Of a stretch of 28,531 nt of DNA, positions 2,277-20,317 are shown piece after piece. How positions within the stretch are numbered: the stretch's first letter is position 1; each line of letters begins with the position of its first letter. Source of the stretch: an uncultured bacterium (GTDB lineage: Bacteria; Hydrogenedentota; Hydrogenedentia; Hydrogenedentales; JAEUWI01). The notes beneath the pieces were generated by a model. That model saw only the letters and a list, made by a program, of their open reading frames with translations, had not been told where the DNA came from and did not search any database. The stretch is taken from NCBI GenBank assembly GCA_963977445.1, contig CAXBPH010000068.1, positions 1 to 28,531 on the forward strand. Reading direction: 5' to 3'. A program made the translations under genes and the position numbers.

Positions 2277-2356
2277 GATGAGTTATCCTTTCCTGGCTGC
2301 GCCGGAGGCTTCTCCAGGTCGTCAGCCGGTTTCGAGGTTTCTTTTACCTCTAATAA

Positions 2357-2372
2357 GGCAAGGACAATGCCA
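2357..2372 (-). promoter_or_regulatory. Putative sigma54 (-24/-12) promoter for dnaK
   Basis: Minus strand TGGCATTGTCCTTGCC fits TGGCAC-N5-TTGC spacing, about 80 bp upstream of the start. Confidence 0.55.
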
Positions 2373-2679
2373 AGAAAAAAAGTGTCAACGGAATGTAGTG
2401 CTAAATCGTTAATTAACTAGCGGTTGCGCCAGTACAGAATGACAATATTTCGTCAGTGACAGTTGAAGCAGTGTTTTAAACTGGAGCAGTGGTGCTTCGA
2501 ATTGAAACGTCCCAGCCCGTATTTCACGGCTCTGGGGTGGGTGAATACGGGATTTACCCCAATTGAGATATTTTCCTGCAAATGAAACCGAATTGGGCTT
2601 GTCGCGTATATATAGAGTAGAAGGTGCTGAGGTAGTCTGGACACTGCAAATAAAGGACTTAGCCTAATACAGCGATTCT

Positions 2680-2694
2680 TGGCACAGCAATTGC
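2680..2694 (+). promoter_or_regulatory. Putative sigma54 (-24/-12) promoter
   Basis: TGGCACAGCAATTGC, near-consensus with correct spacing, pointing into a gene-free region. Confidence 0.6.
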
Positions 2695-2705
2695 GTAGTA
2701 AGAGT

Positions 2706-3058
2706 TAGTTAAATTAAATGAATAAATCGAACGCAAAGCGCGTTAAGTATGCATAGACAGTTGAATAAGACATACGCACTCTAAAGAGGTTCCCAATGCG
2801 TCGAATGTCTCCCCAATCATGTCGGATCCCCCGATTGCCCCACACCATCCGACATGCAGCGGTTCTCTCCCATAAACACAAGCCGCAACATTCGGCGTGG
2901 TCTCCCCCGAGCCACTCCTCCCTCCCCCATCGCTCGGGGGAGACCCTCTCCTCTTTTTTTATATTCAAGGCGTAAGAACGGTTCTCGGAATTTAAGATGT
3001 TCCTTCCTTCCCTTCGTTCAAGGCCCCCCAACCACTCCGGTGATTGGGGGGCCTTTTT
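2706..3058 (+). ncRNA. Candidate multi-hairpin sRNA with C/U-rich loops
   Basis: Hairpins 2818-2856, 2859-2886 and 2899-2945 with loops CCCCCGATTGCCCC, CTCTCCC and CACTCCTCCCTCCCCC; lies between a sigma54-type promoter and a terminator; no credible ORF. Confidence 0.5.
3020..3058 (+). terminator. Rho-independent terminator
   Basis: AAGGCCCCCCA...TGGGGGGCC followed by TTTTT. Confidence 0.75.
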
Positions 3059-3114
3059 CGTTCATCTTTTTACTACCCACGTCTTCGTGTTTGCTTCCCC
3101 GGGCGAAATTCTCA

Positions 3115-3438
3115 GGACTGTCTCGCCCCCAGGCACCATGGCTTGGAAAAGAACACGGTGAAATGACTTATCACGTCGCAGCACCATGGTCCATGTAGAC
3201 GGGCGTGATTGTCCCGTTTTTGGCGAAAACGTCGTTGGACGAAAGGATACGTTCACCTTGGCGGAGTACCGTTGAGACGGTGTTGCTACCGCCGTGGTTG
3301 AGGGAGCCACAACGTCGACCATGGCAACAACGGGACAGCCACACCGATCATCATTTGCTTTAGATTTTTTCCGTCGAAGTGCTAGCCCACCCGCGTCCCT
3401 CGCCTAATTTCGACGTGTGGTGAGGCAGTCCCCGAGTG
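3115..3438 (+). repeat. Long structured RAYT-flanking repeat, copy A (324 bp)
   Basis: Direct repeat of 4136-4460 (about 43 differences by hand alignment); terminal inverted repeats GGACTGTCTCGCC / GGTGAGGCAGTCC. Confidence 0.9.
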
Positions 3439-3452
3439 TCGCGCTCACTAAT

Positions 3453-4088
3453 TCACCTCCCCTTTCTCCAGATTTCGACTTGCTTGAGGAAAGCGGCGTC
3501 TCGACCGAGTGGTTGACCTTTCTGGGTGTGGCGACGAACTGCCTCGGCTGCTGCGGTATTTTTGCTAAGTCCGCCTAAAGCCTCACGCCATTCCTCGCCA
3601 GAATAACGGTCAAACCATCGTCTCAGATTAAGCAACCGGTCCCCTTTTCCACCTATGTGAGCGGGTGCGCTGGACCACGGATACAACCACGCGTCAGAAA
3701 CCATATGTGCACGTACGGGATTGAGCTCGGCATAGGCGATGGCATTGACCGTGTGTTCGAGGTCCATAGGACACGAAAAAAATCGGCTTTGCCACACGTG
3801 ACCGCTTCTCAAATACTTGGCGTTAAAATAATCTGCGTATTGCTGGTGGGTTCGGCTGGCGGTGTCGGCGAGTGACGTCTCCGTATGGGGGATAGCAACC
3901 AAGTGCAAATGATTGGACATAATGCAGTACGCAACGATTCTCGTACGGAAGAGTTTGCTGTGGCAGTGCAGCAGGTCGAGATACTTCTCTCTGTCTTCGT
4001 TATCGACAAAGACGTCTTGTTTGTTGTTGCCCCGTTGCGTCAGATGATGTGCTACGCCGGGTATGACGATACGCGCGGATCTTGGCAT
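3453..4088 (-). CDS. REP-associated tyrosine transposase (RAYT, HUH/Y1 family)
   Basis: MPRSARIVIPGVAHHLTQRGNNKQDVF, YCIMSNHLHL (HUH), GHVWQSRFFS, AYAELNPVRA (catalytic Tyr), YPWSS; start trimmed to the MPR Met at 4088 (211 aa). Confidence 0.92.
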   Translation of the reverse strand: MPRSARIVIPGVAHHLTQRGNNKQDVFVDNEDREKYLDLLHCHSKLFRTRIVAYCIMSNHLHLVAIPHTETSLADTASRTHQQYADYFNAKYLRSGHVWQSRFFSCPMDLEHTVNAIAYAELNPVRAHMVSDAWLYPWSSAPAHIGGKGDRLLNLRRWFDRYSGEEWREALGGLSKNTAAAEAVRRHTQKGQPLGRDAAFLKQVEIWRKGR

Positions 4089-4094
4089 GCAACG

Positions 4095-4123
4095 AGAATA
4101 ACGACTATTGCGGGATTGGTCAA
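4095..4123 (-). promoter_or_regulatory. sigma70-type promoter giving a probably leaderless RAYT mRNA
   Basis: TTGACC-N17-TATTCT followed by 6 nt and then the ATG; no Shine-Dalgarno. Confidence 0.55.
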
Positions 4124-4135
4124 GAAGAAAATGAG

Positions 4136-4460
4136 GGACTGTCTCGCCCCCATGCACCACGGCTTGGGAAAGAATACGGTGAAATGAGTCATCACGTCGC
4201 AGCACCATGGTCCATGTAGACGGGCGTGATTGTCCTGTGGTTGGGGCGAATGTCGTTGGACGTAGGGATGGCTTTTACCTTGGCGGAGTACCGTTGAGAC
4301 GGTGCTGCTACCGCCGTGGTTGAGGCAGCCACAACGTCGACCATGGCAACAACGGGACAGCCATACCGGTCCTCGTTTTCTTTCTCTTTTTTCCGTCCGC
4401 GTGCTCGCACACCCGTTTGTTTCGCCTCTCTTCGACGTGTGGTGAGGCAGTCCCCGAGTG
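4136..4460 (+). repeat. Long structured RAYT-flanking repeat, copy B (325 bp)
   Basis: Direct repeat of 3115-3438 with the same terminal inverted repeats; the GGCAGTCCCCG end motif is repeated again at 4461-4471. Confidence 0.9.
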
Positions 4461-4484
4461 GGCAGTCCCCGTCCGCCACAATAG

Positions 4485-4525
4485 AAAACGTGCCACGCAG
4501 TGCCCTTGCGGGTCTGCGTGGCACG
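4485..4525 (-). terminator. Rho-independent terminator after the oxidoreductase gene
   Basis: CGTGCCACGCAG...CTGCGTGGCACG 12-bp stem with AAAA on its left (T-tract on the minus strand). Confidence 0.7.
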
Positions 4526-4557
4526 GGATGCCGTTGATGTTCGTAGCCCTTTAGCCC

Positions 4558-5937
4558 TTAGCCTTCGAGAGTCCATCCATCGCGGTAGGGGCGCTTGAGG
4601 AACTTGTTGGCGCCCTCGTCGTTGGTGATGCGACCAGCGACGGGATCGTAGTCAATCTTGCCGCCGTGTCGATAGGCCACCAGGCCCAGGAGCATCTGTT
4701 CAATCATGTTGGAGCTGTATTCAAAGTTACAAGCCGTGTTGAGATCGCCGCCTTTACACGCGTCGAGCCACTGCTTCTGGAAATGGCCCAAGGGCGGGAT
4801 GATTTCCGCAGCGGGACGGGGTTTGTAATAGGTCATGTCCGTCGACGCGCCATAAGGGTAAAGCATGCGCGTGTCGAAGTCGCCGATGAGATAGCCATTG
4901 CTGCCACGGAACATGACACCATGGTCAATCTGGTTCAGGTCGACAAACTTGACCGGCGACGCGGGCATGTCGCCCCCCTGGAACCATTGAACGTTGATGG
5001 CTTCACGCCACGCATTCGCCGGGTGCTCAAAGGTCGACGTCATGCGGACCGGGGTCACTTCGGGGTTATACTCTTCGCCCACGCCCGTGATGGAAGTAGG
5101 TAAGGTCGCGTCGATAGCGTTCCAGGCAATGTCCATCGTGTGGCTGCCCATGTCGCCCACCTGGCCGACGCCGAAATCCCAATACATATTCCAGCTGAGG
5201 CAGTTTACACCGGCAGGCTTTTCGAAGTATTCAGGATTGTAGGGATGGAAGGGCGCCGGTCCGAGCCAGAGGTCGTAGTGGAGATTCTTTGGCGGTTCGC
5301 CGGCGGCGGGGAGATAGCCGGGCTTCGGAAGCTGGCGATTGCCCCATACGCTGACCTCTTTCAGATCGCCGATGGCACCGTCGATGATCATTTCGCGAAT
5401 GCGGTTAAAGTTTTCGTTGGCATGACGCTGCATGCCCACCTGGGTAGCGAGCTTATCTTTCTTTCTCATGTAGGTGCCCCGCACCAGCCGCGCTTCTTCC
5501 ACGCTGATGGCCAGGGGTTTTTCGCAATAGACGTGGAGGTCGCGCAGCATGGCCCAGTTGGCCACAAAGGCGTGGGTCTGATCGGTGGTGCAACATACGA
5601 TGGCATCCAGTTCGGGATGTTCGAGGCACTCGCGCCAATCTACATAACGTTTCGCATCGGGAAACACGGCTCCGGCGAAATCGAGATGTTCTTCGTCGAC
5701 ATCACAGATCGCCACGACGTTTTCCGTCTTCAATGCGTCGTAGTGGGCCCGCGCCCGACCATCGGCGCCGATGAGTGCAATGTTCAACTTATTGCTGGGC
5801 GCACCGGGAGCGGCGAAGGTACCACTCGGCAGAATCAAAAATCCTGCGCCCACGGCGGCCGTCTTCAGGAAATCCCGTCGTCCCGGCCCCCCGTGTTGCT
5901 GCGGCGTTCCTGATGTTGATGTGTTTGAAGTCTTCAT
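4558..5937 (-). CDS. Gfo/Idh/MocA-family oxidoreductase with Tat signal
   Basis: GRRDFLK twin-arginine motif, LNIALIG Rossmann start, [18 protein letters not shown]; start at 5937 after AGGAG. Confidence 0.9.
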
Positions 5938-6013
5938 GGACTTCGCTCCTCGTTCGGTTGCTCTCTCGATTACATCAAAGGGGTACGCCAACGCGTGTCC
6001 CCGGTCTATTCTT

Positions 6014-15298: not shown

Positions 15299-15403
15299 GG
15301 TGTGTGCTCTCCTTCGTAAGAATTCGGGGGGATGAAAAACTCTCGTAGTTATACCGGGAGAGTTTAACACGACGCAAGGACAGGAAGGCACGCGGGCCCT
15401 GTA

Positions 15404-15504
15404 GGGACTGCCTTCGGCCGTGGGGTATGTGGGTAGGACAAAGGAATGTGCGCCAGCCTGTGGAAGACGCTGTCGGACGAGTTTTTCGGGGCCGAGGCTG
15501 TCCC
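15404..15504 (+). repeat. ~100-bp REPIN-like element, copy 1
   Basis: Ends GGGACTGCCTTCGGCC / GGCCGAGGCTGTCCC are inverted repeats; direct repeat of 15679-15778. Confidence 0.85.
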
Positions 15505-15678
15505 GGCTGTGTTGATTGTCGTCGGTTATTTCACAGGGAACTTCAAGACAGGAGCATCCACCCACATTGCGCGGCCTGAAAAGGTCGTTGTGAAATCTAC
15601 TACGTTGGCGTAATCCGCGGCATAGGGTATTCGGGGGTCTTGGATGTCCTGAAGAACGCTGGAATGATTTCTAACGAC

Positions 15679-15778
15679 GGGACTGCCTTCGGCCCTGGGC
15701 ATGTGGGTAGGCTAGAGGAATGTGCGCCAGCCTGTGCACGGCGGCGGCGGGCGTGTTTTCCGGGGCCGAGGCTGTCCC
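15679..15778 (+). repeat. ~100-bp REPIN-like element, copy 2
   Basis: Same ends as 15404-15504; shared ATGTGGGTAGG and AGGAATGTGCGCCAGCCTGTG blocks. Confidence 0.85.
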
Positions 15779-15781
15779 AAC

Positions 15782-15813
15782 AAAAAGGAGCCATCGGAAA
15801 TCCGATGGCTCCT
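15782..15813 (-). terminator. Rho-independent terminator after the esterase gene
   Basis: AGGAGCCATCGG-aaat-CCGATGGCTCCT perfect stem with an A-run on its left. Confidence 0.8.
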
Positions 15814-19297: not shown

Positions 19298-20317
19298 ATG
19301 AAGGCCCGCGCCATTGCCGCCCTGGTCGCTGTCGCCGTTTTTTTCGGTGCCGTGGGGGCCCAGCGTCAGATCCATCAGGCCCAGGAGGCCGATCGGGGTG
19401 AGGATATTCTATTCCTGCCCAACCAGAAACTGCTCAATCACTTTACGGGCGGTTTAAATAATATCGTGGCCGATCTGCTCTGGCTCCGCTGCATCCAATA
19501 CATCGGGACCGAGTCGAAGGGAGATCGCAATTTCACCTGGCTCAATGAGATGGTGAACGCCGTGGTCCAACTGGATCCCCATTTTGGCGATGCCTATCGC
19601 TATGGCGGTATGTTTCTCGCCGCCCTGAAGTCCGACGATGACTCGGGCATCAAATTGCTGGAGCGGGGCGTTGTGGCCAATCCCCGAAACTTCCAGTTGC
19701 CCTATGAACTGGCCATGATTTTCCTGCTGAACCGCAAAGATGAACCGGGCTCCAAGGAGCGCGCCACCTACTACCTCAGCATGGCCGCCTCCATCGATAC
19801 GTGCCCCGAATTCGTCCGCGATCTGGCCACGACCTTACAGGGTCAATACAACCTGGACGAAGTCGAGATCGGCATGTGGAATCGCATGGCCGACAGCGAA
19901 GACAAATTGTTGCGGGAGCTCGCCCAACGCAAACTGGTGGAAGTGGATATTCGAAACACCACGGAAACTCTCAACAAGGCCATGCTTACCTTCAACGGAC
20001 GGGTAGGCCATTTCCCCAACAACCTGGAAGAACTGGCGGCGTCCGGCATCACGCCGGTGCCTGTCAACGACGCCTTGGGTGGCTATTTCGTTCTCGGTGA
20101 TGACGGAGTAATTCGGAACACCACGCTCCTCGATGGCGAAAAAAAGAATTTGCTGAAAAGCCTGCAGAAGCTGGTGGAACGGTACAAAGAAGATAAGGGT
20201 GAGTGGCCCCCGTCGTTGCAGGCGCTGGTGGATGGGGGGATTACGGATCAGTTACCCGAGCACCCCTATCACGACGAGACGTGGCATTACGATCGGGCGA
20301 CGGGTCTGGTGAGTTGA
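19298..20317 (+). CDS. Membrane-anchored TPR-like accessory protein (PilG/XapA-like)
   Basis: N-terminal hydrophobic segment; ADLLWLRCIQY, LDPHFGDAY, LLERGVVANP; operonic with the ABC pair. Confidence 0.7.
   Translation: MKARAIAALVAVAVFFGAVGAQRQIHQAQEADRGEDILFLPNQKLLNHFTGGLNNIVADLLWLRCIQYIGTESKGDRNFTWLNEMVNAVVQLDPHFGDAYRYGGMFLAALKSDDDSGIKLLERGVVANPRNFQLPYELAMIFLLNRKDEPGSKERATYYLSMAASIDTCPEFVRDLATTLQGQYNLDEVEIGMWNRMADSEDKLLRELAQRKLVEVDIRNTTETLNKAMLTFNGRVGHFPNNLEELAASGITPVPVNDALGGYFVLGDDGVIRNTTLLDGEKKNLLKSLQKLVERYKEDKGEWPPSLQALVDGGITDQLPEHPYHDETWHYDRATGLVS

Follow-up and report, generated by a model that had tools for sequence, protein, structure and literature searches.

REPINs are inverted doublets of repetitive extragenic palindromes (REPs) and are thought to be mobilised by REP-associated tyrosine transposases (RAYTs), whose genes they flank (PMC3116915, PMC3337134, PMC6006769). 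Di Nocera et al. (2013) described RAYT-like genes that are flanked by terminal inverted repeats (TIRYT, TIRtron), many with the motif GGGGWSAS, and whose repeat families are arranged singly, as dimers or in clusters (PMC3733652). Here a comparable locus is analysed in a 28,531-nt stretch of DNA from an uncultured bacterium of the Hydrogenedentota (contig CAXBPH010000068.1; the whole stretch is referred to as the window), where a RAYT-type Y1 transposase gene is accompanied by a ~320-nt repeat. The locus is probably REPtron/TIRtron-like: the RAYT-type tyrosine transposase gene has its cognate non-autonomous repeat on both sides, in two copies of the same orientation. Both copies are REPIN-like, being inverted dimers of a ~102-nt unit, and elements of this kind are a known form of bacterial selfish DNA. 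The evidence comprises the architecture of the units and dimers, their abundance, their restriction to one genus among the genomes searched, their association with RAYT genes, and the covariation of their ends.

TIRYT was equated by Quentin et al. (2018) with TnpA-Y1 subclass 2.1, which is entered as 'REP: no' in their Table 1 and whose signatures are NHVH or NH[YF]H, W[EQ], and YIELNP or Y[IV]HLNP (PMC6006769). For the Group 1 flanking 16-mers, Bertels et al. gave only ~12 genome-wide occurrences (PMC5581495). Two papers only (PMC3733652 and PMC6006769) were found in the literature on TIRYT/TIRtron, and none of the matches listed combined Hydrogenedentota with RAYT or REPIN.

The two direct repeat copies, A (3114-3433) and B (4135-4454), are 87-89% identical, and each is an inverted dimer made of a left unit X, a centre and an inverted right unit Y on the plus strand. 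In copy A, the 102-nt unit X (3114-3215) has its left end at 3114-3127, with the first G mutated to A, and its right end at 3202-3215, and the 14-bp pairing of these ends is mismatched at positions 6 and 10. It is followed by a 116-nt centre (3216-3331), which prolongs the inner palindrome and carries hairpins at 3260-3293 and 3294-3310, and by unit Y (3332-3433), which runs from left end to right end on the minus strand and has its end 14-mers at 3332-3345 and 3420-3433. Copy B is divided likewise into unit X (4135-4236), centre (4237-4353) and unit Y (4354-4454). The differences between A and B are concentrated in the interior of the right unit (20 of 73 positions). Six nucleotides after copy B, a fragment resembling the dimer's last bases (GGGCAGTCCCCG; 4460-4471, plus strand) may be the remnant of a further unit end.

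The window subfamily has only three full and three partial copies of the 325-nt repeat in this genome. The third full copy, on contig C297, keeps the unit-centre-unit layout at 70% identity and stands in the tandem order end fragment, full dimer, next left end. Since the long centre is present only in A, B and C297, and in view of this tandem arrangement, the dimer itself behaves as a repeated entity in this subfamily. Single X units with no Y partner are found on contigs C24 and C267. Bases of the type GT(C/T)GTT after the right end carry the inner palindrome on into the centre, where 6-7 of 8 further positions pair, and GTAG precedes the right end in four of the five left-unit copies of the subfamily, while being absent there in the L092, L094 and L095 families. 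The window repeat is not a GTAG-tagged REP in the sense of Di Nocera et al. (2013), in which an unpaired GTAG stands at the foot of a short stem-loop. A search of 40 relatives with the 324-nt repeat matched, outside this genome, only 28-nt pieces, three of them the dimer's right end and one the junction of centre and unit Y. A protein-coding repeat was considered and rejected: the overlapping open reading frames (2714-3031 and 4052-4576) have no Pfam match, and A and B differ by a 1-nt indel.

The unit belongs to a superfamily of wider distribution. It consists of a 14-nt left end (GGGACTG and 7 variable bases), ~74 variable bases, and a 14-nt right end (7 bases matching those of the left end, and C(T/C)GTCCC), which may be generalised as imperfect inverted ends GGGACNG-N7 ... 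N7'-CNGTCCC. The end motif GGGACTG(C/T)CTC occurs 55 times in the genome versus ~10 expected, and the distances between a GGGACNG and the CNGTCCC that follows it have a sharp maximum at 93-97 nt, where the single-nucleotide bins contain 57, 51, 38, 21 and 13 pairs versus ~1.8. At least 194 units of 98-104 nt with exact 7-nt ends are present, compared with 9 for a control pattern; the figure is a lower bound, because the window's own left units, with one end base mutated, are missed. The pattern matches 73-273 times per genome in all nine genomes of the genus (reversed-pattern controls, 5-10). Among 32 genomes outside the genus, from other genera of the family and order, there are 0-10 matches per genome (controls, 0-18).

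Units of the commonest family form arrays with a period of ~231 nt (e.g. C8:47678-47906 and C343:39-498), in which a conserved 22-24-nt hairpin (CCTGAGGG-loop-CCCTCAGG) links one right end to the next and 2 nt separate adjoining left ends. The unit interiors in this family share a central CGTGG motif alone, and that weakly. Many units are found close to contig ends, at a distance of a few hundred bases or less, and the repeats therefore probably cause much of the fragmentation of the assembly into 464 contigs. The window itself carries, on the plus strand, a unit of a different subfamily of the same superfamily at 15404-15504 and a second one of that subfamily 174 nt further on (15679-15778); both are intergenic, with the subfamily sequence GGGACTGCCTTCGG ... 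CCGAGGCTGTCCC.

The pairing of the unit ends was assessed in 155 distinct units oriented by the T at left-end position 6, 34 of the 194 being ambiguous and dropped. The ends pair over exactly 14 positions, and pairing is at chance level from position 15 on. The paired bases vary at position 8 (CG 135, GC 7, TA 1, AT 1), position 10 (CG 105, TA 17, AT 3, GC 1), position 12 (GC 132, AT 12, CG 4), position 13 (AT 82, GC 43, CG 24) and position 14 (CG 124, GC 8, AT 9). The Watson-Crick counts at these five positions are reached by none of 2000 partner shuffles, and this remains so if the 48 end combinations are given one count each. The inner four bases of the stem occur in 16 variants. Position 6 is always mismatched, in part because of the orientation rule, and position 9 is mismatched in 114 of the 155 units. 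When 103 units of the commonest family are folded together, the consensus contains no structure but the 14-bp end stem. On the strand read from left to right end, G-T pairs outnumber A-C oppositions in this stem by 33:7 cells (18:5 when each end combination is counted once), mostly owing to T-G at position 11 (22 versus 2). The excess is a hint that could reflect either strand-specific selection on pairing or a C-to-T bias at position 11.

Whether complementarity is kept within units or across the nest of a dimer may be judged from dimers with differing ends. There are 18 of these among 25 dimers, and after removal of five duplicates 13 non-redundant dimers with 28 differing positions remain. 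Pairing within units is Watson-Crick in 45 of 56 cells, with three G-T and three A-C, whereas nested outer pairing is Watson-Crick in only 2 of 28 (G-T 6, A-C 12) and nested inner pairing in 8 of 28 (G-T 11, A-C 4). Therefore, complementarity is maintained within units and not across the nest. In such dimers, an outer-stem wobble typically has an A-C as its counterpart in the inner stem. The same is seen in the window subfamily, where the outer G-T at position 12 is mirrored by an inner A-C at position 12 in A, B and C297, and the outer T-G at position 8 by an inner A-C in A and B.

The gene between copies A and B (3453-4088, minus strand) encodes a RAYT-type Y1 HUH transposase of 211 amino acids with a likely start methionine at 4088; the 251-residue frame given by the open reading frame finder (to 4208) overruns into copy B. 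The product matches Pfam PF01797 (IS200-like Y1) at 42 bits versus a cutoff of 23, and its translation contains the motifs NHLH (HUH), WQ and YAELNP (tyrosine), with a tail of ~60 residues after the core. A sequence search of the PDB gave no match at E up to 0.01. This genome contains three transposase matches, the other two being 55% and 48% identical in protein, and no near-identical second copy. The closest homologue, with 65% protein identity, is in genome G003, on the same contig and strand as the orthologue (86%) of the GFO/IDH/MocA oxidoreductase gene that neighbours the window gene. Because neighbour and strand are retained, the comparison of the two loci suggests that the window transposase gene has been inherited vertically. 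The distance from transposase to oxidoreductase gene is 4.8 kb in G003 versus 470 nt in the window. At this G003 locus (L131, G003:C54:5500-17500), the 4.8-kb stretch has no counterpart in the window, and dnaK is not adjacent.

Transposase homologues are present in eight of the nine genomes of the genus, with 2-7 matches in each of the eight. After 30 transposase loci had been brought into one orientation, the gene lay in 16 of them between direct repeats of 98 nt or more, whose ends are of the type described above. In paralogues with 44-50% identity, the gene stands directly between GGGACAG-N7 and N7'-CTGTCCC. Comparison of the two flanking dimers with each other at six loci gives identities of 93-100% for the 14-mers, 68-88% for the centres and 55-92% for the unit interiors.

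The likeness to REPIN-RAYT systems is considerable. A RAYT-type Y1 gene is flanked by inverted doublets of a repeat that is over-represented elsewhere in the genome; the window doublet, arranged around its 116-nt centre with outer and inner 14-bp stems, could form a long hairpin; and each transposase paralogue has its own repeat variant, with tandem clusters. The dimensions differ. The monomer here is 98-104 nt long and has non-palindromic 14-nt ends that pair with each other, whereas a REP is a self-folding palindrome of 20-40 nt, and the dimers are 230-325 nt long, whereas REPINs are about 100 nt. The genetics differ as well, in that there are several diverged transposase paralogues per genome and that the enzyme motifs in the window come close to Bertels Group 1, or subclass 2.1, and not to the REPIN-associated Groups 2 and 3. 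As regards a single, vertically inherited gene per family, the three matches of this genome are at most 55% identical to each other, and synteny with G003 is partial.

TIRYT resembles the locus in other respects. In place of REP hairpins, a RAYT-like gene has terminal inverted repeats beside it; the ends have a G-rich motif, and GGGGACAG, the right-end type with a G ahead of it, fits GGGGWSAS; the inverted-repeat families are moderately abundant and occur as singles, dimers and clusters; and the window motifs NHLH, WQ and YAELNP are close to, though not identical with, the subclass 2.1 signatures. In contrast to TIRYT, however, the window gene lies between two direct dimer copies and not inside one inverted pair, the ends nearest to it are of the left-end type (GGGACTG) and do not fit GGGGWSAS, and the 73-273 units per genome are far above the ~12 reported for the Group 1 16-mers (PMC5581495).

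Two further systems may be compared. Like the units of the commonest family, with their 2-nt gap and 22-24-nt hairpin, the bacterial interspersed mosaic elements (BIMEs) of E. coli are arrays of REPs in alternating orientation with two kinds of linker of fixed length. Their REPs are 35-40 nt long, compared with the 102-nt units here, and the subclass of the transposase differs too. With IS200/IS605 the locus shares a Y1 HUH transposase, left and right ends that are different but related, and an expected recognition of single strands; it differs in the lack of subterminal end hairpins and of near-identical gene copies, and in the tyrosine motif, which in the window is of the RAYT type Y-x3-NP (YAELNP) and not Y-x3-Q (PMC6006769).

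An earlier, sequence-only reading had described the repeat as a single nested fold of the plus strand, conserved by selection and antisense to the transposase mRNA. The individual stems are for the most part present. All 58 proposed pairs are standard in both A and B (52 Watson-Crick and 6 G-T each), including the terminal stem with its two G-T pairs, the inner stem TTGTCC(C/T)GT/ACGGGACAG, which as proposed stops short of two A-C mismatches, and the two central hairpins. The core that had been noted at the ends and again internally corresponds to the four unit ends. Differences between the copies do spare the pairing, in that A and B differ at 2 of 116 paired versus 41 of 205 unpaired positions, and RNAalifold recovers the same overall nest from A, B and C297. 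Such a nest arises because an inverted dimer of units with near-identical ends has been folded in silico.

The plus strand folds better than dinucleotide shuffles. With RNA parameters, the folding tool gives a z-score of -3.14 for the plus strand (1/100 shuffles as good) and -0.92 for the minus strand (15/100), and separate dinucleotide shuffles give, for A, B and C297, respectively, -3.7, -3.3 and -3.7 on the plus strand and -1.15, -1.0 and -1.4 on the minus strand. With DNA parameters, the corresponding values are -3.4, -1.7 and -2.3 (plus) and -1.25, 0.0 and -2.5 (minus). When the centre is shuffled, the fold becomes weaker (z -2.55, -1.6, -2.4). When both unit interiors are shuffled and the ends and centre are kept, the energy is unchanged (z -0.07, -0.03, -0.12). 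Therefore, the three middle stems CACGTCG/CGACGTG, AGCAC/GTGCT and GACGG/CCGTC, which do consist of standard pairs as proposed, contribute nothing to stability beyond chance. The interiors of X and Y show no complementarity beyond chance in A (106/500 shuffles) or B (304/500) and are marginal in C297 (7/500). The segments of the left-unit middle stems are conserved also in the partnerless X units on C24 and C267 (3 of 16 versus 18-20 of 58), so that pairing need not explain their conservation.

Of the two points by which the nested fold was to be refuted, one is borne out and the other is not: covariation across homologues is not significant, but the folding energy is, as given above, better than that of shuffled controls. 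The test is limited to three sequences, because no further full-length homologue was found in the 40 relatives, and 57/500 shuffles reach the score of the nested structure, in which 94.3% of 174 cells are paired. Only two pairs have changed on both sides, both of them in the hairpin 3265-3284. The unit-level structure has 85.1% of 141 cells paired on the same copies, and 189/500 shuffles reach its score. In the centre of the L095-type dimer from three species, 41 predicted pairs include no compensatory change, and both strands fold alike (-63.0 versus -65.7). The wobbles that had been taken to favour the plus strand are real as G-T pairs in the outer stem, but the one at position 12 is offset by the inner A-C described above. 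In A, B and C297, the 14-bp outer and inner stems together have G-T to A-C ratios of 3:3, 5:2 and 5:1, respectively; over the whole arms the ratios are 6:13, 9:5 and 5:5, a count that is uninformative because the interiors align too poorly.

That a single-stranded fold matters is the part of the earlier reading that probably stands, since Y1 (HUH) transposases act on folded single-stranded DNA, as established for IS200/IS605 and E. coli TnpA-REP (PMC6006769); selection on one nested fold of the plus strand is unsupported. By analogy with these enzymes, the fold is probably relevant as a DNA substrate of the transposase. On single-stranded DNA, the ends of a unit, or the like ends of a dimer, would pair into an imperfect 14-bp stem with fixed mismatches, which would be recognised and cut by the transposase much as hairpins are by IS200/IS605 TnpA and by TnpA-REP of E. 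coli. That copies lie next to the gene may reflect an enzyme that acts near its site of production, or a gene that lies inside a tandem array of dimers. More tentatively, and at somewhat less than even probability, the units may be regarded as lineage-restricted 'panhandle' elements of ~102 nt, at 73-273 per genome, that are served by several RAYT paralogues of a reportedly REP-less subclass. The matching of the ends would then be read partly by nucleic-acid pairing and not by protein alone, and the ~74-nt interior would be constrained in length but hardly in sequence. On this view, the two ends of a unit are matched by base pairing on one DNA strand, in a 14-bp stem whose mismatches at positions 6 and 9/10 are obligatory, with 16 covarying variants of the inner four bases and a G-T to A-C ratio of 33:7 on the strand read from left to right end.

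Several observations weigh against a cognate repeat whose pairing is kept at the level of the unit. As given above, with RNA parameters the plus strand of the window subfamily folds better than the minus strand. Nested pairing is more favourable than unit-level pairing in A, B and C297, by ~10-25 kcal/mol with RNA and 9-11 with DNA parameters, the values for copy A being distorted by a forced non-standard (A-C) pair, and the cells of the outer and inner stems are 100% paired in these copies versus 83-86% for the unit stems. Middle-stem positions are conserved also in comparison with C297, a copy not known to the sequence-only reading, with changes at 3 of 33 versus 46 of 114 other interior positions (Fisher p 0.0006). 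As for the enzyme, its best NCBIfam match, NF047646 'REP-associated tyrosine transposase', scores 56.3 bits, under the cutoff of 80. A C-terminal helix-turn-helix (Bac_DnaA_C, HTH_23 or HTH_28), the absence of which is a further difference from TIRYT, was not detected in it by a Pfam scan at E up to 5, which gave only Y1_Tnp and a chance-level match. A transposase gene with units of the commonest family on its flanks was not found in this assembly, which is fragmented, although there is one in G003 (L107). Finally, the region orthologous to window positions 15317-15783 in genome G005 is intergenic, 240 nt shorter and without units, but it is too diverged to define the boundaries of an empty site.

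Alternatively, the repeat could be a structured plus-strand RNA of ~325 nt, antisense to the transposase mRNA, with selection keeping its nested fold, an RNA form of the sequence-only reading. The strand difference in the three copies (z -3.3 to -3.7 versus -1.0 to -1.4 with RNA parameters), the G-T pairs in the stems, the conservation of paired positions, the dependence of the fold on the hairpin-bearing centre, and the location of the two double-sided changes in one central hairpin are all in agreement with such an RNA. However, A, B and C297 share ancestry, and the strand bias therefore amounts to about one observation. Ten other transposase-flanking dimers, with the gene set on the minus strand, fold well on both strands (z -0.9 to -8.2), the lower z being on the plus strand in four (L092a, L092b, L093a, L105a) and on the minus strand in six. 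There is thus no general 'antisense to transposase' rule, because a dimer reads alike (left-right, right'-left') on both strands. A search of 2300-4700 against Rfam 15 at E up to 1 gave no match except a chance-level miRNA outside the repeat, and the promoter scan gave no plus-strand promoter-like site ahead of A or B. In addition, covariation is not significant, the unit interiors contribute no folding energy, the outer G-T at position 12 has an A-C as its inner counterpart in A, B and C297, and the element is a member of a superfamily, dispersed in ~200 copies, in which the 14-nt ends are what is conserved. A dedicated antisense structured RNA is thus unlikely, and, put in the full form of a selected nested RNA fold, very improbable.

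The dimers might instead have been co-opted by the host as punctuation in minus-strand RNA or DNA, for example as stabilisers of mRNA 3' ends or as insulators between the oxidoreductase gene, the transposase gene and dnaK, much as is reported for the REPs of E. coli. The four genes between 387 and 5991 share the minus strand, and the dimers occupy gaps between these genes; roles of REPs in mRNA stabilisation and termination have been mentioned (PMC3733652). This explanation is nevertheless improbable, as the minus strand folds no better than shuffles (z -0.9 to -1.4), neither copy is followed by a T-run on either strand, the terminator-like sites of the scan are elsewhere or are short pieces of ends, and the pairing of repeats with transposase paralogues across the genus is left unexplained. 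It is likewise improbable that A and B are the unusually long ends of one composite transposon, of which the ~1.34-kb block (3114-4454) would move as a whole in the manner of IS200/IS605. The same orientation of the flanking copies, which resembles that of the IS200/IS605 end hairpins on the active strand, the several transposase paralogues per genome, and the direct bracketing of more distant paralogues by inverted ends would fit such an arrangement. In contrast, no near-identical second copy of the gene is present here (55% and 48% protein identity for the others), the 65% homologue in G003 keeps its neighbour gene and strand and so points to vertical inheritance, and by far the most units and dimers are not accompanied by a gene.

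With the locus taken as a RAYT-type gene and its cognate inverted dimers, a candidate structured RNA is removed, and the many GGGAC(T/A)G-ended repeats that split the assembly into contigs are explained. If pairing at the level of the unit is what matters, the little-studied RAYT (TIRYT) enzymes of subclass 2.1 would gain a concrete and abundant substrate with natural covariation, so that what they recognise would become directly testable, and REPIN-like populations would be recognised in an uncultured phylum and in a RAYT group so far regarded as not maintaining them. What is worth following is the architecture of the unit, namely its fixed length, imperfect 14-bp end stem, covarying inner bases and hundreds of copies, found in one genus among the genomes searched.

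The block of repeats and transposase is flanked by dnaK (387-2276) and the GFO/IDH/MocA oxidoreductase gene (4558-5991), both on the minus strand. Between copy B and the start of the transposase gene, promoter-like hexamers (TTGACC-17-TATTCT; 4095-4123, minus strand) were identified by match to the consensus, at a level of 2 sites found versus 1.5 expected. Terminator-like hairpins with T-runs are present on the plus strand at 2936-2954 and 3035-3049, between dnaK and copy A; the genes adjoining them are on the minus strand. A 32-nt inverted repeat (2605-2636 and 19770-19801), 72% complementary and with its arms 17 kb apart, is probably due to chance.

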